From IMG/VR virus record IMGVR_UViG_3300006116_000048, positions 1 to 29,494 of that record: a stretch of DNA of 29,494 nt. One strand, given 5' to 3'. The notes beneath the pieces were generated by a model. That model was not told the DNA's origin and made no database searches. It worked only from the letters and a program-made list of their open reading frames with translations. Shown piece after piece: positions 13,573-28,731 of the stretch (the first letter of the stretch is position 1; every line of letters starts with the position of its first letter). The translations under genes and the position numbers were made by a program. Origin of the DNA: a virus (Duplodnaviria; Caudoviricetes).

Positions 13573-13761
13573 ATGACAGAACAAGAAGTTTACGCCGAAT
13601 TGAAACAAAAGGTAAAGCCATATATCGGTATTATGCCGCAATCCAGCTTTAGTAGGTGTATGATACAATATAAGGTAGGCTTATTAAAACCTGCTACTAT
13701 TAAAAAGTTTTTTGAAAGTATGGGTTATACATTTGCTAACAATAAATGGTCTAAAAAATGA
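13573..13761 (+). CDS. Small basic protein, possibly HTH-like
   Basis: First gene of an ATGA-coupled cassette; weak HTH-like pattern MPQSSFSR. Confidence 0.6.
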   Translation: MTEQEVYAELKQKVKPYIGIMPQSSFSRCMIQYKVGLLKPATIKKFFESMGYTFANNKWSKK

Positions 13762-14003
13762 GCCTACAAATATTTTATCTCAATCGCCCGCAGTGTACGG
13801 TTACTATTGGCAAGCTAGATGACAAACTAGGTAAGTCGTACACGACTGAAATAAAAGTGCAGGAAGAAAGATATAGTTATGTAGTAACTGTACTTCGAAG
13901 GTTCGGCGGTCAATATTATAAACGCATTGGGTGGCGAATGATTAAAGGGGGTAAAGAGGTCGCAATACCATTACATATAAAAAATAATTTAGAATTAAAA
14001 TGA
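13758..14003 (+). CDS. Hypothetical protein
   Basis: ATGA overlaps with both neighbouring genes. Confidence 0.65.
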   Translation: MSLQIFYLNRPQCTVTIGKLDDKLGKSYTTEIKVQEERYSYVVTVLRRFGGQYYKRIGWRMIKGGKEVAIPLHIKNNLELK

Positions 14004-14227
14004 CAGCTAAAATCAACGGCGTAAATTATCGCATCAAACGTTACCCTAAAGGTTGGGTAATAGAAAAACAAAAGTCTTTTTTATTTATCAAATATTGGGT
14101 TCATGCTGTTAGCGTTTCGGGAATACCATCAGAACCTTGGCATTACAGTTTTTACAGATTTGCAAAATGGGATTTAGATAGAATAAAGGACGGTATTACT
14201 ACTGGCTTAAAAATGAATCTTGTATGA
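14000..14227 (+). CDS. Hypothetical protein
   Basis: ATGA overlaps at both ends; YRIK...W.IEKQKSFLFIKYW pattern of small phage proteins. Confidence 0.65.
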   Translation: MTAKINGVNYRIKRYPKGWVIEKQKSFLFIKYWVHAVSVSGIPSEPWHYSFYRFAKWDLDRIKDGITTGLKMNLV

Positions 14228-14388
14228 TACTCAACATCGACTACCACATAAGGCGTGCAACTGTTAAAGCATTAAACCTCGCTAGAACCAAACGGGATGC
14301 CGCTAGGTTATTAGGTATAAATGAAAGAAGTTTGTTTAATTACTTGGATAGGTATGAGATTATTTATATAAATGGGGTTTATAAATAA
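14224..14388 (+). CDS. Stand-alone Fis-type helix-turn-helix protein (54 aa)
   Basis: Not in the ORF track. MILNIDYHIRRATVKALNLARTKRDAARLLGINERSLFNYLDRYEIIYINGVYK matches the Fis/NtrC HTH pattern AL.......AA.LLGI....L...L..Y.I. Confidence 0.8.
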   Translation: MILNIDYHIRRATVKALNLARTKRDAARLLGINERSLFNYLDRYEIIYINGVYK

Positions 14389-14393
14389 ATAAA

Positions 14394-14420
14394 CCCGTCA
14401 GGTGTAGACACACCAACGGG
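14394..14420 (-). terminator. Hairpin, probably the terminator for the leftward head/neck transcript
   Basis: Minus strand CCCGTTGGTGT-GTCT-ACACCTGACGGG followed by TTTATTTATTT. Confidence 0.55.
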
Positions 14421-14431
14421 ATAAAACACAC

Positions 14432-14650
14432 ATGAAAAAAATGAAAAAAAATAGTGCGTTATTAGTTAAAGTTCATCGTTATTTATTGAATAAAGAGAAA
14501 AGTCATCGTGTTTGTTTTGAATATATTTTTGAAAATGAACATTACCACTCTTGCAATGTTGATATTAACCCAAACGAATTAAAAGAAACCGAAAAACGAA
14601 TATCGCTATTAGTTGAACGGGGGATTATTCACTTGCGTAACCGTTGTTAA
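14432..14650 (+). CDS. Hypothetical protein
   Basis: 72 aa ORF with an A-rich leader; overlaps the convergent gene by 42 nt. Confidence 0.4.
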   Translation: MKKMKKNSALLVKVHRYLLNKEKSHRVCFEYIFENEHYHSCNVDINPNELKETEKRISLLVERGIIHLRNRC

Positions 14651-15142
14651 TGGTTGCGTACTTGTTTGAGTAAAATTTGTTGAAGGATCAATAGCACAAC
14701 TATCAAATACTATTCCGTAGCCTATATTCAATCCTTCGCCGTCTAAGTTATCGGCGTTCTGCACATTAGACAAAGTAAACTTAAAACAGTAGTTATTTAA
14801 CACATCTGTCATAAGGCTACTAATATAAACGCCCTTACTAAAATGCTGCCTAATATCATCAATTACTTTCAATAACCCCCTACTATAATCCGTATCATCG
14901 TCAATCATGCCATCGGGCATATAGTTGTAAGAATTTAGTTTGAACATCCAATCTACACGACTTACACCGCCGCAATATTGATAGGCTTCGCTTGCTGGCA
15001 GCATCTCAATAATAAGTAAAGGCATAGTGTAGCCTTCCATCTTTTTAGGGCTGTAATCCGTTTTTAAGATAATAGTGCCGCCGCTATCAGCAAGAAACTG
15101 CTTGCACTCTTGGGCAACGGCGTTTAAGATGTCATCTATCAT
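14609..15142 (-). CDS. Tail terminator/neck protein (Mu gp37-like)
   Basis: Size and position near the gpG-like gene; YTMPLLIIEM and LLKVIDDIRQHF patterns. Confidence 0.6.
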   Translation of the reverse strand: MIDDILNAVAQECKQFLADSGGTIILKTDYSPKKMEGYTMPLLIIEMLPASEAYQYCGGVSRVDWMFKLNSYNYMPDGMIDDDTDYSRGLLKVIDDIRQHFSKGVYISSLMTDVLNNYCFKFTLSNVQNADNLDGEGLNIGYGIVFDSCAIDPSTNFTQTSTQPLTTVTQVNNPPFN

Positions 15143-19968: not shown

Positions 19969-21396
19969 TTAGAATGTAATTTGTTCGCCACGTTGTATTT
20001 GCACGATGCCGTTTGGTTTGAATAACTTGCCCCCACGTTGATAAGAGGTAAAGTCCTGGGCAAAAGCGGAGCAAAGAAGATAATCTACTAGGTCACTAAA
20101 ATGCCCTACTATTTGATAGGACTTTTTTGTGTTAGGGTCGGTTGCAGTTGCTTTGTCTTTCGTTCCGTCTGGGGCTTCTTTTACTGCAATAAAATCATTA
20201 ATAGTTTTTTTGCAATTTGAGCCTATTACTATTTTTAACCCCCCTATTTCTTTCTCAAAGATAGTATTAATCCAATCGCCTCGCATCTTTACAGAAGGGT
20301 TTGAGCGCAATACTCGCAATGTAGGGCGGTAACTTATTAAGGCATCTGTTATTAATCTATAAAAATTGTAGCCCTTTTCTAGTTTAGTATCTTCTTTACT
20401 TGCCGTTGCATCACCGTAAATAAATAACCCTGATTGATGGGATGGATATTTTCTTATAAATTCATTACATACAGCCTTAACCGTATTTAGTGGTGTAACC
20501 CCTGCAATCTCATCTATCATGTAAACAGTCTTACCCTTAATTTGAAAGATACCAACAGGTAAAAACGGGTTTACATTGTCATCGAAACTAATATGCAGAG
20601 GTAATTCGTGGTCGTAGTAAGTATCGGCAACGTGCTGATTAATCTCAAAACATTTGTAAAATTCGCCGCCCGTTTTCATTTGCACATCCCAATTCCCTTC
20701 TACAAATACCTCGTATTCAAACCTATTCAAATTAGCTTTAAGTGAAGGTAAATAATCTGGCTGTTGTGTTAATAAAGGAATATTATCATAAATTCTAGAT
20801 TGAATATAAAGCCAATTTGGGTTAAGTGTATTTTCTTTATGTGGCAAATAAATTAAATCACGAACCCATCCAAAGCTAGGGTTGCAAGTTCCACAAACTA
20901 CTGGTTTAGGCTGTTGTTTAGCATTTGGTATTACATAACTACCAGCTCTTTCAAAAGCCTTGAATAAACTTTGTTGCTGGCACTCGTTTATCTCTTCCAA
21001 TCCCGCCCCATTAATTTCAAGTCCTTTCCATCTATTGAGGTCTTTATCTGTATCGTAGTTTTCTGCAAAAAAAATAAGCTGAGAACCATTTTTAAATGTT
21101 ACTGTTTGTTGGTTGCTATCGCTTGCATCTTTTTCAATAAAACTAGATGGTTTTATTTTTTCCCAACTTGGGTAAAGATTTCTTTTTATTGTAGGTATGT
21201 CTTTACGAATAATAACCCATCTACTGCCTGGATGTATTTTTGAAAGTAAAGTAAATAGTGAAAGTAAGGCAACTGTTTTACCGCCACGAATAGCCCCACC
21301 AAATAAAACAAAAGAATAATTCCCATTAAGTACCGCATTAATAAACTCCTCTTGCTTTGGGAATGGCGCAAATACTATTTCTTTATTTTTTTTCAT
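19969..21396 (-). CDS. terL: Terminase large subunit
   Basis: Walker A GGAIRGGKT, Walker B GLEE, coupling motif TCNP, and nuclease acidic residues SFDDN, YGDA and HFSDLVDY. Confidence 0.93.
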   Translation of the reverse strand: MKKNKEIVFAPFPKQEEFINAVLNGNYSFVLFGGAIRGGKTVALLSLFTLLSKIHPGSRWVIIRKDIPTIKRNLYPSWEKIKPSSFIEKDASDSNQQTVTFKNGSQLIFFAENYDTDKDLNRWKGLEINGAGLEEINECQQQSLFKAFERAGSYVIPNAKQQPKPVVCGTCNPSFGWVRDLIYLPHKENTLNPNWLYIQSRIYDNIPLLTQQPDYLPSLKANLNRFEYEVFVEGNWDVQMKTGGEFYKCFEINQHVADTYYDHELPLHISFDDNVNPFLPVGIFQIKGKTVYMIDEIAGVTPLNTVKAVCNEFIRKYPSHQSGLFIYGDATASKEDTKLEKGYNFYRLITDALISYRPTLRVLRSNPSVKMRGDWINTIFEKEIGGLKIVIGSNCKKTINDFIAVKEAPDGTKDKATATDPNTKKSYQIVGHFSDLVDYLLCSAFAQDFTSYQRGGKLFKPNGIVQIQRGEQITF

Positions 21397-22103
21397 TATA
21401 GAATTTTATTTCCTTTTATTAAATTTTCTAAAGCCCAAAGAGGCTGCAAGTTAGTGTAATGACATAGTTTTTTTAATTCTTCTTCACTTTTAGCTGATGA
21501 TAAGGGGATTATATGGTCTATATGCCAAACTCTAAAATTATAATTATCCCAACTCATCCCAACTTTAAATTTTAACTCAATATGTTTTTTAGCCTCAATA
21601 ATTGAACAACCTAATAAAACTATTGTTTTTTCACTTTTATAATATGATGAATGTTTAAAAGCATAACTAATTCTACATCTAAGATTGTCAGATAGCTTCA
21701 TTAATGGGTTATTTTGTTTTTGTTTTTTTCTGCTTTCTCTTATTATTGGTCTATTGTTTTTATTGTAATCAATTGAATATTTTTTTAATTGCTCATCGTT
21801 TTTAAAACGCCATTCTTTCATGTAATTTTTAATTTTTTCGGAATTTTCTTTTTTGTATTGAATAAGTTTTTCTTTGTTTTTTTCACACCATAATTTACTC
21901 CTTTCTTTATTAGAAATATATATTTTAGGTTTTTTTAATGCCATTATTTTTTTATGTCTATTTTTAGACCTTTCTATATAAATTTCTTTATTTTTTTCAT
22001 AATGCAATTTACCGTACCCTTTATTTTTTTCAGCCCATCTTTTTTTGCTTTCAGCTTTTCTTTTTTTTGATTCATCTTCTGTATAAATTTTTACTCTTGG
22101 CAT
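21396..22103 (-). CDS. Free-standing HNH (EndoVII-like) putative homing endonuclease
   Basis: WHIDHIIPLS...LCHYTNLQPLWALENLIKG; Lys-rich helical N-terminal repeats; visibly more AT-rich than its flanks. Confidence 0.85.
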   Translation of the reverse strand: MPRVKIYTEDESKKRKAESKKRWAEKNKGYGKLHYEKNKEIYIERSKNRHKKIMALKKPKIYISNKERSKLWCEKNKEKLIQYKKENSEKIKNYMKEWRFKNDEQLKKYSIDYNKNNRPIIRESRKKQKQNNPLMKLSDNLRCRISYAFKHSSYYKSEKTIVLLGCSIIEAKKHIELKFKVGMSWDNYNFRVWHIDHIIPLSSAKSEEELKKLCHYTNLQPLWALENLIKGNKIL

Positions 22104-22202
22104 AATTAAATAAAAAAATGTTAAGGTTCAGTGCGGTAACACATCCCCTTAACATTTTAAAAATAAGTTTAAAATTGTAGTTACCGCTACATTGCAAATA
22201 TA
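22104..22202 (-). promoter_or_regulatory. Promoter plus structured kissing-loop leader (copy A) upstream of the HNH gene
   Basis: TATATTTG; hairpin UGUAG-CGGUAA-CUACA; 12-bp stem AAAAUGUUAAGG/CCUUAACAUUUU with apical loop UUACCG. Confidence 0.7.
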
Positions 22203-22217
22203 GCGATTTTAATTTAT

Positions 22218-22619
22218 TTAAAATTCAATTTCTTTTCCATTAATAATCATTACTTGTACTGTCTTAACATCTTCCCCGTCTTTATTGACTTGGGCTTGTT
22301 TTTGTATTGCCTTACCGTGCGCTCTGTCTAATATCTTCTCAATCATTTCTGCACCGTTTTTAGATAACATTTCCTTCGCCACAATGCGCATTAACATAGG
22401 GTAACTGCTATCGCTTATTATTGACTTAATACGTTCTTCATCTAGATTAATCAATATAGAATAAGCCTCAACTATATTATTAGCTGATGCTGCCGTATAT
22501 CCTTCTTCTCTTAACTGCTCATTAACCCGTGACAATACTTTTTTTGGCTGTCCCTTAGGGTTGCCGCTTTGTCCTTTCTTAAATGTATTGCCGTAATTAT
22601 GTCCTTTCTGAAATGGCAT
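22218..22619 (-). CDS. terS: Terminase small subunit (DUF5681-type N-terminus)
   Basis: FKKGQSGNPKGQPK motif and ILDRAHGKA; upstream of TerL; start placed at MPFQKG. Confidence 0.75.
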   Translation of the reverse strand: MPFQKGHNYGNTFKKGQSGNPKGQPKKVLSRVNEQLREEGYTAASANNIVEAYSILINLDEERIKSIISDSSYPMLMRIVAKEMLSKNGAEMIEKILDRAHGKAIQKQAQVNKDGEDVKTVQVMIINGKEIEF

Positions 22620-22658
22620 ATATTTAACCGTTTGTATTTTCAATAAATGCTTCCACTT

Positions 22659-22746
22659 CTTTATCACTAAGCTGCTGCCCGTTCCGCTTTATCACTAAGC
22701 TGCTGCCCGTTCCGCTTTATCACTAAGCTGCTGCCCGTTCCGCTTT
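22659..22746. repeat. Perfect 28-bp tandem repeat, three copies plus 4 nt
   Basis: CTTTATCACTAAGCTGCTGCCCGTTCCG at 22659, 22687 and 22715. Confidence 0.97.
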
Positions 22747-24012: not shown

Positions 24013-24020
24013 CAAAGATA
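24013..24020 (-). promoter_or_regulatory. -7 promoter element TATCTTTG
   Basis: TAnnTTTG 6 nt upstream of ATG 24006. Confidence 0.5.
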
Positions 24021-24041: not shown

Positions 24042-24398
24042 TTAAAATTTAGTTAAAGCATTTATTACATCTTCCGCACTATCCGCCGTTACTATTGTAA
24101 TACCAACACTAGCCCAATGATTATGTAGGTATTTCTGCTTATCTGAAAGTTTACCGTTGGGCATTTTTAACTCTAATCCCCAAAATTTAGGATACACAAA
24201 TAAAAAGTCGGGAACGCCTGCAATAACGCCCATACTATGAAGTTTCAATCTCATAGCCATACTTGTAGCACTTTCATTAGCTACATGAAAGTAAAATCCC
24301 CTTAACGCTGGGTAATTATGATTGATATATTTATGGGTTGCAGCTGTAAATTGGTCTTCGTTGGCGTAAATGGCGGTTAAAAATTGTTGTTTAGTCAT
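24042..24398 (-). CDS. VRR-NUC domain nuclease (resolvase-like)
   Basis: PD-(D/E)xK motif FHVANE...GVIAGVPD...LELK...GKLSDKQ. Confidence 0.9.
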   Translation of the reverse strand: MTKQQFLTAIYANEDQFTAATHKYINHNYPALRGFYFHVANESATSMAMRLKLHSMGVIAGVPDFLFVYPKFWGLELKMPNGKLSDKQKYLHNHWASVGITIVTADSAEDVINALTKF

Positions 24399-24400
24399 AT

Positions 24401-24698
24401 TTAGTAATTTTTGTAAAAGTTTAGTAATTGCTGTAATTCAATGGTAGTAAAGGTTTAACTATAAAAATTACCAAATTACTAAAAATTTCCCTATCTATTA
24501 TTTATATACAGTAACACTACTATTTATTTTTTATGTTTTATATATTTAGTACTTATACTCTTTTATATTTTTCTTATACAATAAATAGATTTATTTTTAG
24601 TAATTTTAGTAATTTATCTTTAAAAGTCAATAGTAGTAAAGGTTTTAGAATTACTAAACCCTTAAAAAAAATAGTAATCAGTTAGTAATTTTAGTAAT
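24401..24698. repeat. Iteron-rich AT-rich non-coding region, candidate replication origin
   Basis: Eight exact TTAGTAAT/ATTACTAA copies plus a 19-bp direct repeat, directly downstream of the primase-helicase gene. Confidence 0.7.
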
Positions 24699-27161
24699 TT
24701 AAAATGGTATTTCTATGGAAAATATCCTCATTTTTACTGATAATCTATTAACAGTCTTAATAATATCGTGCTTATAATCAACCTTCTTTTTTTCAGCATA
24801 AGCCTTAATAGCGGCGTTAATCCGTTGAGTTGAAGGTTGATATTGCTTAGGTGTATTGTTTTCAGCATAATAGGCTTCTAAATAACTTTTAAAGGTATCG
24901 TTGCTTATTTCTACACGTTCACACCAATGGTCAAAGTTCTGATCAATGAAGTTAAATATTATTGAGCCGTATGTTTGTTCAAACTGTTTAAGCCATCCGC
25001 CTTCGGTTAATGTAGGCGCAGTTAGTTTCTTACCGCCTTTTAGCCATTGTTGTATTGATTGTGCAATAAAATTATCAAAACCCGCCCAATCTTCATTACT
25101 CCATCCTTTAGGAAAATGGCAATTATAATGTACATCTAAACCGCCGACATTAGTAAAGAAGTTGGTAAATTCAATAGGGATAATTCTACGCCTCAATCCC
25201 CCGTCTGTAACTTCATAACTGTAATTAGTTTGCACTATAAATTTAGGTGCTTCCTCGTTTGATACTTCCACTTCATCTTTAAAAAGTTTCTTCCAAATAA
25301 ATGAGCCTGTGGATGGTTCTTTCAAAAAAGAAAAGTCGAAATTTTTAGGAACATCGCTGATGCAAAATATACGCTGCCCGTTCCAAGATTGAAAAAACTT
25401 CTCATCAAATTTAGTCTGCGATCCTGGCTTTGAAGTGTAAGAAGTTGTATGTTTTAGCAAACTGCAAAATACATTTTTTCCACTACCACCACCATCTCTA
25501 GGGTCACGACATTGTTCTGTTAGCACAATAATATAGCCCGTTGTTTCGTCTTTGTATTCGTGACAAAGAAAACCAAGTATTCGTTGAGTGTGGGCTATAT
25601 GTTCTTCGCCTATTGCTAATTTCAAAAAGTCCACATATTTTCCTCCTTCGCCTTTATTGTAATTTCGCTGTTGTAACTTTTCAGCCCATATAAGCATTTC
25701 TAAGGCATCGTATTCAAGGAAGCTAATTGATGTAGAGTCTATTACTAAGTAACCGTTTAAGAAGAACTTAAAACAAGTTTTTTCGGTATCCTTCAATATT
25801 GTATCCTCTGCCAATATTGATAAACGTTTCATAGTGTACTTTCCGTGTGCTTCTAAAAAAGCCTCCAAAGCATTACAAATAGATATACATTCTTCATTGT
25901 TTGGTTCTTTTATGTATTCTTTTAATACATCTTGAAACTCCCTTTCTTCAATTTTATGTATCAAATAACTTATAATTCTTACTACATTTCCTTTGTAATA
26001 TCTAAAACCTAAATAAGTGGAAACTAATAAAAGTTTTTCACGGTTAATAGTCATTTTACCATCTTCGTCATAATCCCAAAAAGTGCCGTGCGGGTGTAGT
26101 TCTTGTAATTCACCTTGTATCGTTACTGCTAGTTTCCTAGTTTCTTCAGATACATTTTTTGGCAAGGTGTATCCTTTACGGGCTGCATTTTGTGCTAATA
26201 TCTTTTGCTTTTTTTCTTTTATGATACCATATCCGTTATCACATAGCCAAGCATAAGTTTTCTTTTTATCCCCCTTGTGTTCTAGTATAGATAATAGCGT
26301 TACAGGATTATAACCTTTTGATGGTTCTAGGTCTGTGGATGATGTGAATATGTAGTAACATCGTTTATGTCTGTTAAATGATGCAGAAATTCCCGTCGTT
26401 TTATTAGGACGGGTAAACCAAATAAAGTTATTACTACTGCCGCATAAACTCCACCCATTATTTGTAAGTACGCTTTCTGCTGCTGCACTACCGTTAAAGT
26501 GGTCGAATGGGTTTTGGTCGTAATAGTCATTCGATATAGTTGTAGGGGCTATTGCTGCTACTTTTTTCTTTTGGTTGTATCCTTCACAAATAGCAATTAT
26601 ACTGCACCTTTCAGCCCAAGTAATTGTAGGTATTGGGTTATCTTTAACTACCTTGTAATTCATTTGTGTTGCAGCAACTACATATCCACCTGTGCCTCTC
26701 GTCTCTATCGCTGCTTCTTTTGCATCTTCTTTCCAAGCTAACTTTAAATTTCCTGGTGGTTCGTGGTCGCTAATACGGTAAAATATATGGTAGCCTTTTG
26801 ATGGTGTTTGTGTTATTCGTAGTTGCTCGAATATGTGCGGAAACATTGCTTTTATATCCGCAAATAACATAGCATCAACCCCAACCCAATTTTTTACATC
26901 TACATCAATTATTTCTAAGTTTCCACTTACTGCGCCTGCTACAATACCATATCCAATAGTATCATATTTTTCAGTCATTAGATACAATAACTCTGCTTTA
27001 GATATTATTTCTGTTTGCCATTTTTTCCAAGGATATGCAGACTTAACAGGATACTCTCTGCCGTTAAATGTTTGTGGTTTATCTCTTACGGGAATAACTG
27101 AAATGCCGTTATCTAAATAGTATTCACATTCTTTTATTGATTGCTGAAAAGTAGTAGTCAT
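24699..27161 (-). CDS. Bifunctional primase-polymerase (Prim-Pol) fused to a P-loop (SF3-like) helicase
   Basis: IIDVDVK, TPSKGYHIFY and IETRGTGGYVVA Prim-Pol motifs; GGSGKN Walker A, QTNY and LRRRI; ends in IPF. Confidence 0.9.
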   Translation of the reverse strand: MTTTFQQSIKECEYYLDNGISVIPVRDKPQTFNGREYPVKSAYPWKKWQTEIISKAELLYLMTEKYDTIGYGIVAGAVSGNLEIIDVDVKNWVGVDAMLFADIKAMFPHIFEQLRITQTPSKGYHIFYRISDHEPPGNLKLAWKEDAKEAAIETRGTGGYVVAATQMNYKVVKDNPIPTITWAERCSIIAICEGYNQKKKVAAIAPTTISNDYYDQNPFDHFNGSAAAESVLTNNGWSLCGSSNNFIWFTRPNKTTGISASFNRHKRCYYIFTSSTDLEPSKGYNPVTLLSILEHKGDKKKTYAWLCDNGYGIIKEKKQKILAQNAARKGYTLPKNVSEETRKLAVTIQGELQELHPHGTFWDYDEDGKMTINREKLLLVSTYLGFRYYKGNVVRIISYLIHKIEEREFQDVLKEYIKEPNNEECISICNALEAFLEAHGKYTMKRLSILAEDTILKDTEKTCFKFFLNGYLVIDSTSISFLEYDALEMLIWAEKLQQRNYNKGEGGKYVDFLKLAIGEEHIAHTQRILGFLCHEYKDETTGYIIVLTEQCRDPRDGGGSGKNVFCSLLKHTTSYTSKPGSQTKFDEKFFQSWNGQRIFCISDVPKNFDFSFLKEPSTGSFIWKKLFKDEVEVSNEEAPKFIVQTNYSYEVTDGGLRRRIIPIEFTNFFTNVGGLDVHYNCHFPKGWSNEDWAGFDNFIAQSIQQWLKGGKKLTAPTLTEGGWLKQFEQTYGSIIFNFIDQNFDHWCERVEISNDTFKSYLEAYYAENNTPKQYQPSTQRINAAIKAYAEKKKVDYKHDIIKTVNRLSVKMRIFSIEIPF

Positions 27162-28613
27162 TTATTTAATTTTAATGTTGTAAAATTCTAGTGGTTCACT
27201 TATATCTTGATGTTTAACCCATCCGCTGTGGTAGCCCATTGCAGTCGCAAAAGACTGTAAAAATAGGGCATCTTGCTTTGCTTTCGCTACTCTTATTGCA
27301 AAAGGTTTCTTATTTGTTATCTTAGCATAGTCGGCTAATTCAATCGGTGTAAGGTCTGCAATATATTTTCCCCTAAGTTTATTATAGCTTTCTGTAACCT
27401 CTACTAACTTGCCTTCAACGTATTCTTTTTCTTTTGACTGAAATTCGTGTCCGCATTCTGGGCAAGTCATAACACGGGGTGCAAGTATTAAAAAACATTT
27501 AGGGCATTCTTTAATTGGTGCTACTCCGTCTTTCTTTTTCTTAGGTGGTTTATTCCACATTTTAGCCCAATCAAATTCAAAGTTCCATATCCCGTGACGG
27601 GATGCGTTACCGCCGTAATCAAGGACGGTAAAGCGTTCTTTCCCATCGTGAACTCTTGCGCCACGCCCAACCATTTGACAGTATAAAGCTAGTGAAGTTG
27701 TAGCCCGTCTAAGTATTACTAAGTCTATTGGTTTAAAATCCCATCCTTTTGTTAATACAGAAACAGAAACACAAATATCAACATCCCCATGAGTAAATTG
27801 GTTTAATTCAATTTCCGACTTTTCATTTTTACTATGTACTTCTGAAACGACAAAGCCAACGTTTCTAAGTTCTTGAGATAAAGCAGCACAATCTACTATT
27901 GAGGCACAATAAACTATTGTTTTTTTATTATGATATTTTTGCAAATCTTCGTGAAGCCCTGCAAATACTTTCGGTTTATTAAAAGCATCAAATTGAGATG
28001 CCTCTGAAAATTCCCCTTTGCTATCTTTTTTTAATCCGCTTAAATCTGCTGCCTGTCTTTCATAATGGTAATATGGTGACAAATAACCACCCTCTAAAAG
28101 TTCCTGCGGTTGCGCTCCAATTACAATATCATTGTATAAAAGTGGTAGATGTTTTGCTACTCTATAGTCGGGTGTAGCTGTAAAACCAATAAGATAGGCT
28201 TCTGTTAATTGTTGCAATAATTTTGTAGACGTGCCGACGTGGCACTCGTCATTTATAATTAAAAGTTTTGAACCAAAGTTTTGAAACTGTGATATTATAA
28301 ATTCCCTTCTTACTAATGTTTGAGCCATTGCCACATAGCATTTGCCTACTTCAATATCTACAAACTTTATCCCGTCTCCAATAGTTACGCAATCGCCTTG
28401 CTCTTCATGTATTTGTTTATAAATCTTTGATGTTTCGGAAATTATTAAAACGGTTGTTTTCTTTTCTAAAGCATCTTTCACCATTGAAAGAAATGTTTTA
28501 GTCTTGCCACTTCCTGTGGCAGCACAAGCAATTACCTTTTTACTTTTGGCAAGCGATGACCGTATATTTTCTTTAAACTTCTTTTGATAAGAGTAAAGTT
28601 CGTATGATGACAT
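27162..28613 (-). CDS. SF2 DExH helicase with C-terminal zinc finger (RadD/YejH-like)
   Basis: ATGSGKT, DECH, TATP, LTKGWD and QMVGRGAR motifs; CPKC..CPECGHEF zinc finger. Confidence 0.93.
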   Translation of the reverse strand: MSSYELYSYQKKFKENIRSSLAKSKKVIACAATGSGKTKTFLSMVKDALEKKTTVLIISETSKIYKQIHEEQGDCVTIGDGIKFVDIEVGKCYVAMAQTLVRREFIISQFQNFGSKLLIINDECHVGTSTKLLQQLTEAYLIGFTATPDYRVAKHLPLLYNDIVIGAQPQELLEGGYLSPYYHYERQAADLSGLKKDSKGEFSEASQFDAFNKPKVFAGLHEDLQKYHNKKTIVYCASIVDCAALSQELRNVGFVVSEVHSKNEKSEIELNQFTHGDVDICVSVSVLTKGWDFKPIDLVILRRATTSLALYCQMVGRGARVHDGKERFTVLDYGGNASRHGIWNFEFDWAKMWNKPPKKKKDGVAPIKECPKCFLILAPRVMTCPECGHEFQSKEKEYVEGKLVEVTESYNKLRGKYIADLTPIELADYAKITNKKPFAIRVAKAKQDALFLQSFATAMGYHSGWVKHQDISEPLEFYNIKIK

Positions 28614-28731
28614 AAAATAAAAAAGCCTTAAAGTGGATGATGTAATAGCACCCTGTAAAACAGGTACACCATCCCTTTTAAAGCCATTAATTAGTTCTTA
28701 ATCGTAGGTGCTACACTACGCTACAAATATA
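28614..28731 (-). promoter_or_regulatory. Promoter plus structured loop-pairing leader (copy B) upstream of the helicase/primase operon
   Basis: TATATTTG; hairpin CGUAG-UGUAGCAC-CUACG; long stem with an unpaired GUGCUAU segment, followed by a U-tract. Confidence 0.7.

Follow-up and report, generated by a model that had tools for sequence, protein, structure and literature searches.

A putative portable kissing-loop leader RNA with terminator-like anatomy before nuclease and replication genes of Bacteroidota phages

The whole stretch of viral DNA analysed here, a 29,494-base virus record hereafter called the window, contains terminase, helicase, primase and methylase genes and two copies (A and B) of what is, judged by its sequence, a portable leader RNA. 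This leader spans about 85 bases, brings its own promoter-like site and precedes nuclease and DNA-replication genes in many Bacteroidota phages. The family layout consists of a TAnnTTTG site, a 5′ hairpin (P1), an AU linker, a terminator-like hairpin, a U-tract and the AUG, and the loops of the two hairpins can pair with each other in a “kiss”. Across the members compared, the architecture appears conserved and the letters do not. We lean, with modest confidence, towards a co-transcriptional cis attenuator of guanidine-IV shape and with no conserved ligand pocket, in which the kiss would block the terminator and thereby allow read-through.

The first-pass annotation described copy A as a promoter box, a 3-nt offset, two hairpins joined by a 17-nt linker, and 11 nt separating hairpin 2 from the AUG at 22103, and this layout was re-read base for base (Table 1). 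Because the spacing between promoter and hairpin is fixed, transcription probably starts at, or adjoining, the first bases of hairpin 1. The Bacteroidota sigma-A consensus spans −12 to −5 (PMC9723704, accessible text). Among 16 runs, each represented by contigs with small word shares, one metatranscriptome contig of a relative, from a single study, ends at the first base of P1; contigs of runs that are probably DNA break there too, and this end was not counted as evidence. The loops of copy A are complementary and, as proposed, extendable to 8 bp; an 8-mer complement within a 40-nt span has a chance probability of about 2.5e-4 before correction for searching. None of 200 shuffles folded as well as the native sequence (z = −3.0 for the leader, z = −4.4 for hairpin 2 alone).

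The lower stem of hairpin 2 had been called a perfect 12-bp stem. All of its pairs are present, but four of the 12 are A–U pairs made with the U-tract, so that as a terminator the element amounts to an 8-bp stem followed by U7. A terminator-like stem and a U-tract do lie between the promoter-like site and the AUG, in agreement with the attenuator-like anatomy first suggested, and this anatomy predicts termination a few nucleotides before the start codon. The stem is AU-rich, which counts against the attenuator reading. A simple terminator scan called neither copy in the window, likely because of their internal loops. Beyond three identical copies, close relatives of the 6-nt-loop subtype of copy A were not found.

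Table 1. Coordinates of the two leader copies and of the neighbouring genes in the window
Feature	Position	Strand	Details and basis
Copy A, promoter-like box TATATTTG	22195..22202	-	TAnnTTTG, Bacteroidota sigma-A −7 type; then 3 nt to hairpin 1; sequence
Copy A, hairpin 1 (P1)	22176..22191	-	loop-1 pairing segment 22187-22180
Copy A, AU-rich linker	22159..22175	-	17 nt (most relatives 16-22 nt); sequence
Copy A, hairpin 2	22115..22158	-	terminator-like 12-bp stem 22158-22147/22126-22115; GA-rich internal loop GGAU/UGAA; short apical stem, apex 22142-22131; loop-2 pairing segment 22140-22133 (8 bp with loop 1)
Copy A, U7 tract and U-rich spacer to AUG	22104..22118	-	U7 at 22118-22112; sequence
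HNH-type nuclease gene, cargo of copy A	21396..22103	-	235 aa; PHROG 1035 endonuclease VII, E 8e-9
Likely terminase small subunit, upstream of cassette	22218..22667	-	DUF5681, E 2.5e-7
Terminase large subunit, downstream of cassette	19969..21396	-	domain and PHROG matches
Copy B, promoter-like box	28724..28731	-	sequence
Copy B, hairpin 1	28703..28720	-	8-nt loop; sequence, folding
Copy B, hairpin 2 with extra apical hairpin and U-tract	28614..28685	-	loop partner in a bulge at 28652-28645; folding
Superfamily-2 helicase gene, cargo of copy B	27162..28613	-	Pfam ResIII, Helicase_C
Primase-polymerase gene, after the helicase	24699-27161	-	Pfam Prim-Pol

The nuclease gene behind copy A has a DHIIP...N motif visible in its translation and no Pfam match, and its stop overlaps the start of the gene for the terminase large subunit (terL). 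Upstream of the cassette lies the likely small-subunit gene (terS), whose position and C-terminus agree with the ORFs abutting terL in relatives. A terS-like ORF abuts terL in 33 of 49 non-redundant terL relatives; six others have a gap of 77–144 nt, six have another ORF before terL, and four are unresolved. The leader and its HNH gene are therefore an insertion in the window, and the late genes would have to be transcribed past the putative copy A terminator, which speaks for an attenuator. The same junction in L467 holds an independent leader with an unrelated 84-aa ORF. Altogether, the junction insertions in L467, L477, L479, L484 and L508 consist of two NUMOD4-like ORFs without a leader and three ORFs of 84–92 aa, one of them with a leader.

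Copy B stands before the helicase gene. As annotated, it shares with copy A the promoter, the offset, the GUAG/CUAC stem and the 17-nt linker; the further claim, that the two copies make a compensatory pair, had to be given up. Loop 1 of copy B has 8 nt, and its partner is a 7-nt bulge (28651–28645) beside an extra 5-bp hairpin, with one G–U pair in the kiss, so that A and B are diverged subtypes rather than a position-by-position compensatory pair. The real evidence for covariation comes from other phages. As free duplexes, the own pairings of A and B are calculated at −14.5 and −11.7 kcal/mol, as compared with −5.2 and −8.4 kcal/mol for the cross pairings. Among helicase orthologs picked by protein, a B-type leader is kept at five of eight loci (100, 96 and 71% identity), including six Watson–Crick kiss pairs in L425/L426, and is absent at the three loci with 41–44% identity.

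Several further features of the window were recorded. In the AT-rich non-coding gap right after the primase gene (24397–24702), motifs of the TTAGTAAT type recur both directly and inverted, among them an exact 20-nt repeat with its copies 85 nt apart; this gap is likely the phage replication origin. A TAnnTTTG box at 24020–24013 precedes an unlisted 40-aa ORF (24020–23887, minus strand), which lies in frame ahead of the ParB-methylase gene and looks like a helix-turn-helix fragment. On the plus strand, a small divergent gene cluster (13573–14650) with its own TATATTTG box (13543) sits among the minus-strand late genes, flanked by hairpins at 14375–14396 and 14634–14660.

How widespread is the leader, and does the loop complementarity hold outside the window? 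A viral scan using the promoter and P1 only gave 120 loci, 85 of them distinct, and 27 of these 85 carry a 7–8 nt complement of their own loop in the downstream hairpin. A second viral scan required TTTG, P1 and a distant T-run, and asked for neither the promoter TA nor loop 2. Among its 87 distinct matches, 64 have a perfect 7-bp complement of their own loop, and all 64 have TA at −12; seven have TA without the kiss and 16 have neither, which places the kiss in 64 of the 71 TA-bearing matches. The 23 non-kissing matches are mostly unrelated sequence, and three share the promoter and a similar P1. When foreign loops were swapped in as a control, a complement was found in 28 of 4,512 swaps. The annotated idea of a leader RNA family with covarying loop complementarity is thus borne out by homologous leaders that were not selected for kissing. 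In the common form, a 5-bp P1 with an 8-nt loop (one free and seven pairing nucleotides) is followed by a linker of 16–22 nt and a second hairpin, which comprises the stem, a variable internal loop or bulge, an apex of 3–4 bp and an 8-nt loop. Loop-E-like or tandem-GA internal loops recur among members.

In an alignment of 40 rows, 98% of the cells pair and changes on both sides occur in six of seven kiss pairs and in three of three apical pairs, the kiss counts being circular, as the rows had been selected for a perfect kiss and P1 was set by the search pattern. A covariance model built from 37 relatives with the window left out, and unable to score the pseudoknot, ranked A and B as its two best matches in the window (E 1.6e-5 and 4e-4). 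Copies found with this model (L412–L417, both copies of the phage mumin9-1, and L467) retain a kiss of 7–8 bp, several of them with a new P1. The match L420 was rejected as a chance match of the model. The leader at L418:~135–217 (G024), which precedes a lipoprotein-like gene, lacks a well-defined first hairpin, but a 9-nt segment on its 5′ side can pair with the loop of the terminator. This variant may be a minimal form of the switch.

With a descriptor that specifies neither the P1 nor the loop sequence, the 3,386 promoter-like sites of 16 phage records yielded 26 distinct leaders, as compared with 0, 1 and 1 of 3,356 in head-swap controls and 0 of 2,632 sites at other loci. The descriptor missed the known members L128, L425/L426 and L467, and its counts are therefore lower bounds. 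It added subtypes with unrelated kisses of 8–9 bp, and also two leaders that have the loop words exchanged between the hairpins: in L646:12352 and L658:16009, loop 1 carries the word that other members have in loop 2, and loop 2 the word of their loop 1, hinting at an inversion between the complementary segments. Two other kinds of leader were encountered in the scans. L302, L304 and L340 have the same promoter, a P1-like hairpin with a 4-nt loop and a terminator before the AUG, and no 7-bp complement; they may represent a degenerate or a separate leader type. About 25 loci (L002, L004, L005, L035, L036 and duplicates) carry a structured leader with the promoter, a GTAG/CTAC hairpin and further hairpins; their structure is a different one, and they were not counted in the kissing family. 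L002 has no Rfam match.

The first-pass annotation further regarded the loop sequence as a specificity code, and this reading is unsupported by the comparisons. The kiss letters change about as fast as the stems (0.065 against 0.046 changes per nt over 44 close-pair edges, with a second estimate similar or lower). Fifteen different 7-mer loop words occur among the 64 matches, one word being common to 15 of them, and identical 7-mers turn up in different phages and before different cargo genes. Records with multiple copies have different words within the record in 15 of 15 cases; the absence of identical words among about 21 within-genome pairs is within chance (an estimated 1–2 expected), and in three genomes two words lie one base apart. 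In addition, three near-identical leader pairs differ by one clean compensatory pair with 0–1 other arm changes, suggesting that the kiss turns over readily. The loop letters likely matter for pairing strength rather than identity. Four to five of the seven kiss pairs are G–C in 64 of 65 cases, and selection for strong pairing that counters an AT mutation bias could account for such a “tuned” strength.

The cargo genes downstream of the leaders fall into HNH, GIY-YIG, helicase, primase and antirepressor classes. The 38 downstream ORFs scanned (from 43 representatives, five being omitted as truncated or redundant) comprise 21 with NUMOD4, mostly with HNH, four GIY-YIG, one T5orf172, three primase-type, one helicase, two DUF6291/Lin1244, two KilA-N/AntA and four with no family. 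Ten divergent copies precede primase, helicase, DUF6291, RNase H and HNH genes, four of the downstream genes having no family. A nuclease-partner RNA was considered and rejected, since the cargo varies and a leader accompanies only one of the 15 further HNH homolog loci examined. The cassette thus appears portable and not tied to one nuclease.

Among cultured phages, Flavobacterium Muminvirus phages carry the leader (34 records at a query coverage of at least 80%). In mumin9-1, one copy lies before a NUMOD4 nuclease gene and the other before a gene preceding helicase and VapE, the same cargo pairing as in the window. A tyrosine integrase occurs in one of 18 carrier records and a serine recombinase in none. 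The core pattern is absent from 401 genomes of the phylum and from 401 Flavobacterium genomes (overlapping samples), and the covariance model found no member in 5 and 151 cell genomes, with only 29–150 candidates scored per genome. A scan of 22 of the 64 GTDB parts gave 120 matches, two with an AU-rich complement of 7–8 nt and neither a member by inspection, while an over-loose pattern run on metagenomes gave the kiss in 0 of 121 matches. On this distribution, the leader is phage-borne and its carriers are mostly non-integrating. A prophage immunity RNA of the P4 CI/P1 C4 type was rejected on the same integrase, recombinase and genome counts, the rarity of integrases alone making it unlikely.

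The closest likeness in topology is to the guanidine-IV (GGAM-1/mepA) and Gd4v RNAs, which, as far as the accessible text of the papers goes (PMC7736828, PMC11611296, PMC9788692), likewise combine two hairpins, a loop–loop pseudoknot and a 3′ terminator with a U-tract before the gene. Kissing in guanidine-IV is proposed to stretch the linker so that the outer terminator pairs fail to form (PMC7736828), a steric block to full closure of the terminator, with the kiss and P2 elongation competing over a narrow interval (PMC11611296). Both RNAs depend on a ligand and on loop nucleotides that are strongly conserved, and they regulate sugE/MATE/GNAT or transaminase genes on cell chromosomes, whereas the phage leader has a freely varying kiss of 7–9 bp with a variable P1 and internal loop and stands before nuclease and replication genes. 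The conserved guanidine-IV loop nucleotides do not recur in the phage family, with its 15 7-mers among 64 matches and its unrelated 8–9-mers, and no sugE, MATE, GNAT or transaminase gene is associated with it among the 38 scanned downstream ORFs of the 43 representatives. By analogy, the leader would work like a guanidine-IV-type terminator-loop switch without being a member of that class. No Rfam 15 model matched at its gathering score, the only matches being chance ones (E 0.2–0.6); Flavo-1 was considered and dropped, there being no match to it.

In the phages P4 and P1, the CI and C4 RNAs arise as short terminated RNAs alongside read-through mRNAs from one phage promoter. IsrK of Gifsy-1 has the same arrangement before regulatory/replication genes (PMC4825925, accessible text). 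These are prophage systems in which action in trans has been shown, whereas 17 of 18 carriers of the leader lack a tyrosine integrase and its action in trans is hypothetical. A different parallel is offered by the T-even genes mobE, segF and I-TevI, where RNA structure limits a mobile nuclease in an essential operon and partial termination at mobE is about 30% (PMC2988022). As described in the accessible part of that paper, the T-even hairpins are single, with no loop–loop pairing and no shared portable family, and they are not placed on replication genes.

An entry that resembles the leader was found in the supplement of Fremin 2023 (PMC10690425). DNAVirus_8377 is 105 nt long, comprises 88 IMG/VR sequences with a predicted terminator, is mostly from freshwater with Bacteroidetes hosts where assigned, and lies before HNH_3, NUMOD4, AP2 and GIY-YIG genes. 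Judged by this table description alone, it is probably the leader family, although as an anonymous row with three covarying bases and with no passage found in the accessible main text; DNAVirus_1203 is a weaker second candidate in the catalogue. The literature searched, with subscription papers mostly outside it, contained no description of a kissing leader, and the accessible text of Weinberg 2017 (PMC5737381) and Guerin 2021 (PMC9723704) had no matching passage. As far as this search goes, the family is undescribed and has probably been catalogued once. The novelty first claimed for it stands as regards Rfam, but is narrowed by the guanidine-IV precedent in topology and by the probable catalogue entry.

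How would the leader act? In the attenuator that we favour, the host sigma-A polymerase would start at hairpin 1, as the fixed spacing suggests, and loop 1 would be displayed. Loop 2 would emerge about 40–50 nt later, ahead of the 3′ arm of the terminator; the order of loop 1, loop 2 and 3′ arm is given by the sequence, and the distance from P1 to loop 2 is 33–41 nt in 40 of 43 representatives. The GC-rich kiss of 7–9 bp is predicted to form first: in prefix folding, a nested equilibrium model in which P1 and the kiss cannot coexist and neither kinetics nor polymerase is represented, the loop–loop helix dominates in 42 of 43 representatives at +8 nt past loop 2, in 36 at +12 and in one at +20. 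The values for copy A are 1.0, 0.95 and 0 at these positions, the predicted kiss of copy B is weaker (0.74 at +8 and 0 at +12), and the same switch is seen in 13 of 13 divergent copies. RNA polymerase covers about 14 nt of transcript, and the kiss would thus still hold as the polymerase enters the U-tract.

With the linker and the 5′ arm ringed by the kiss, the base of the terminator would not be zipped in time, resulting in read-through, as in the guanidine-IV proposal; the 3′ arm, tethered to the polymerase, presumably could not wind the roughly 1.5 turns needed to close it. That the kiss turns the gene on likewise follows this analogy. If the terminator won the race, an RNA of about 85 nt would be released just before the AUG. 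Consistent with this, 33 of 43 representatives have a U-rich tract (at least six U in 8 nt) behind the last G–C pair, and in 35 the AUG lies 9–20 nt away; the other eight are misfolded into the gene. A correlation between linker and arm (Spearman −0.65) is confounded by these eight rows and by construction, and was set aside. The upper stem and the internal loop could still form under the kiss, which would explain their covariation; the covarying apical stem (3/3) and the recurrent internal loops would suit a kissed fold that persists in the final product just as well as one that is transient, which counts against the attenuator.

Read-through mRNA would begin with a structured, A-poor region, and its translation would likely be weak too. 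Only 11 of 43 leader genes have A at −3, as compared with 39 of 50 other genes of one cultured phage, and their start regions are rich in U at places where A prevails in other phage genes. In F. johnsoniae, A-3 and low structure favour initiation (PMC6847099, accessible text), and the output of the leader genes is therefore likely low. Overall, the leader would serve as a self-contained limiter or timer of genes whose products are hazardous or required at low levels. The race may be shifted in the cell by polymerase speed, Mg2+ or the short RNA itself, or may be set as a fixed leak; the last could be obtained more simply with a weaker promoter, which is a point against the attenuator. The lack of a conserved pocket together with the long GC-rich kiss argues that no small ligand is involved.

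The short product itself suggests another reading, in which terminated RNAs capture the nascent leader loop in trans and block the cis kiss, turning the gene off (or on, in the manner of IsrK), with the loop word as address. In favour of this, both loops are present on the product, loop 1 stays exposed while about 40–50 nt are transcribed ahead of loop 2, each window copy pairs more strongly with itself than with the other by the energies given above, the words differ in 15 of 15 multi-copy records, and IsrK provides a precedent (PMC4825925, accessible text). We nevertheless consider such a self-titrating switch unlikely, because the lack of identical words in about 21 within-genome pairs does not exceed chance, three genomes hold words one base apart, the kiss has no clear excess of change, and the intramolecular kiss may neutralise the short product. 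Its boldest extension would be an RNA clock of lytic phages requiring neither ligand nor protein: a strong cis kiss would let early transcripts read through, and 85-nt products accumulating with genome copy number would then shut off primase, helicase and homing nucleases in trans, the loop words keeping cassettes and co-infecting phages on their own channels. This we hold to be improbable to a like degree. Cis-antisense control, in which an opposite-strand promoter makes a complementary RNA as in plasmids, was rejected for the TAnnTTTG promoter type: the reverse motif occurs in the first 200 nt of 6 of 30 genes, as compared with 5–6 of 30 in control bins.

Termination may also be minor, with the hairpin masking the start region and the kissed fold setting ribosome access or shielding the 5′ end of the mRNA. 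The 3′ arm of the stem covers −11 to −20, which is A-rich in other genes (A at −12 in 3 of 43 against 37 of 50), structure and A-3 tune initiation in F. johnsoniae (PMC6847099), and T-even homing endonucleases use hairpins for translational control (PMC2988022), both as given in the accessible text. Translational control as the main function is quite unlikely, however, since a conserved, unbroken run of U immediately behind the stem is the mark of a terminator, the AUG itself stays accessible, and the U-tract lies 14–25 nt from the AUG in some members. A gate is very unlikely, be it the ligand of an orphan riboswitch, an ion or a protein like Rop, which recognises the shape of a kiss; a host factor or Mg2+ may be the gate in one version. 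The shared topology with guanidine-IV and Gd4v and the A-G-U kept at the loop start in the core subfamily speak for it, but the loops, P1 and internal loop are unconserved across subtypes, the cargo genes have no common metabolite, and, among ORFs of at least 45 aa, no protein family is shared by every one of the 16 records (at most 10 of 16, for helicase and NUMOD4-HNH). Finally, the adjacent conserved stem-loops of HK022 put RNA bind RNA polymerase and suppress distant terminators. A processive antiterminator of this kind would suit a leader in which a promoter is immediately followed by two hairpins and then by a U-rich site, and which heads long operons of essential replication genes or of terminase and late genes; the hairpins lie 16–22 nt apart rather than adjacent, no surface is invariant across subtypes and many copies precede a single nuclease gene, which together leave it highly improbable.

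Gene control in Bacteroidota phages is, to our knowledge, scarcely understood. The leader appears to be a common, portable cassette for such control, shared and exchanged between homing nucleases and replication genes. The guanidine-IV design of kissing the terminator loop apparently runs here without a ligand pocket. How a pseudoknot blocks a terminator with which it does not overlap is called an unresolved mechanism in the accessible text of the guanidine-IV papers, and the family supplies more than 25 naturally occurring loop pairs on which this can be tested. If the loops are freely swappable, they would provide a ready set of RNA parts for Bacteroidota.
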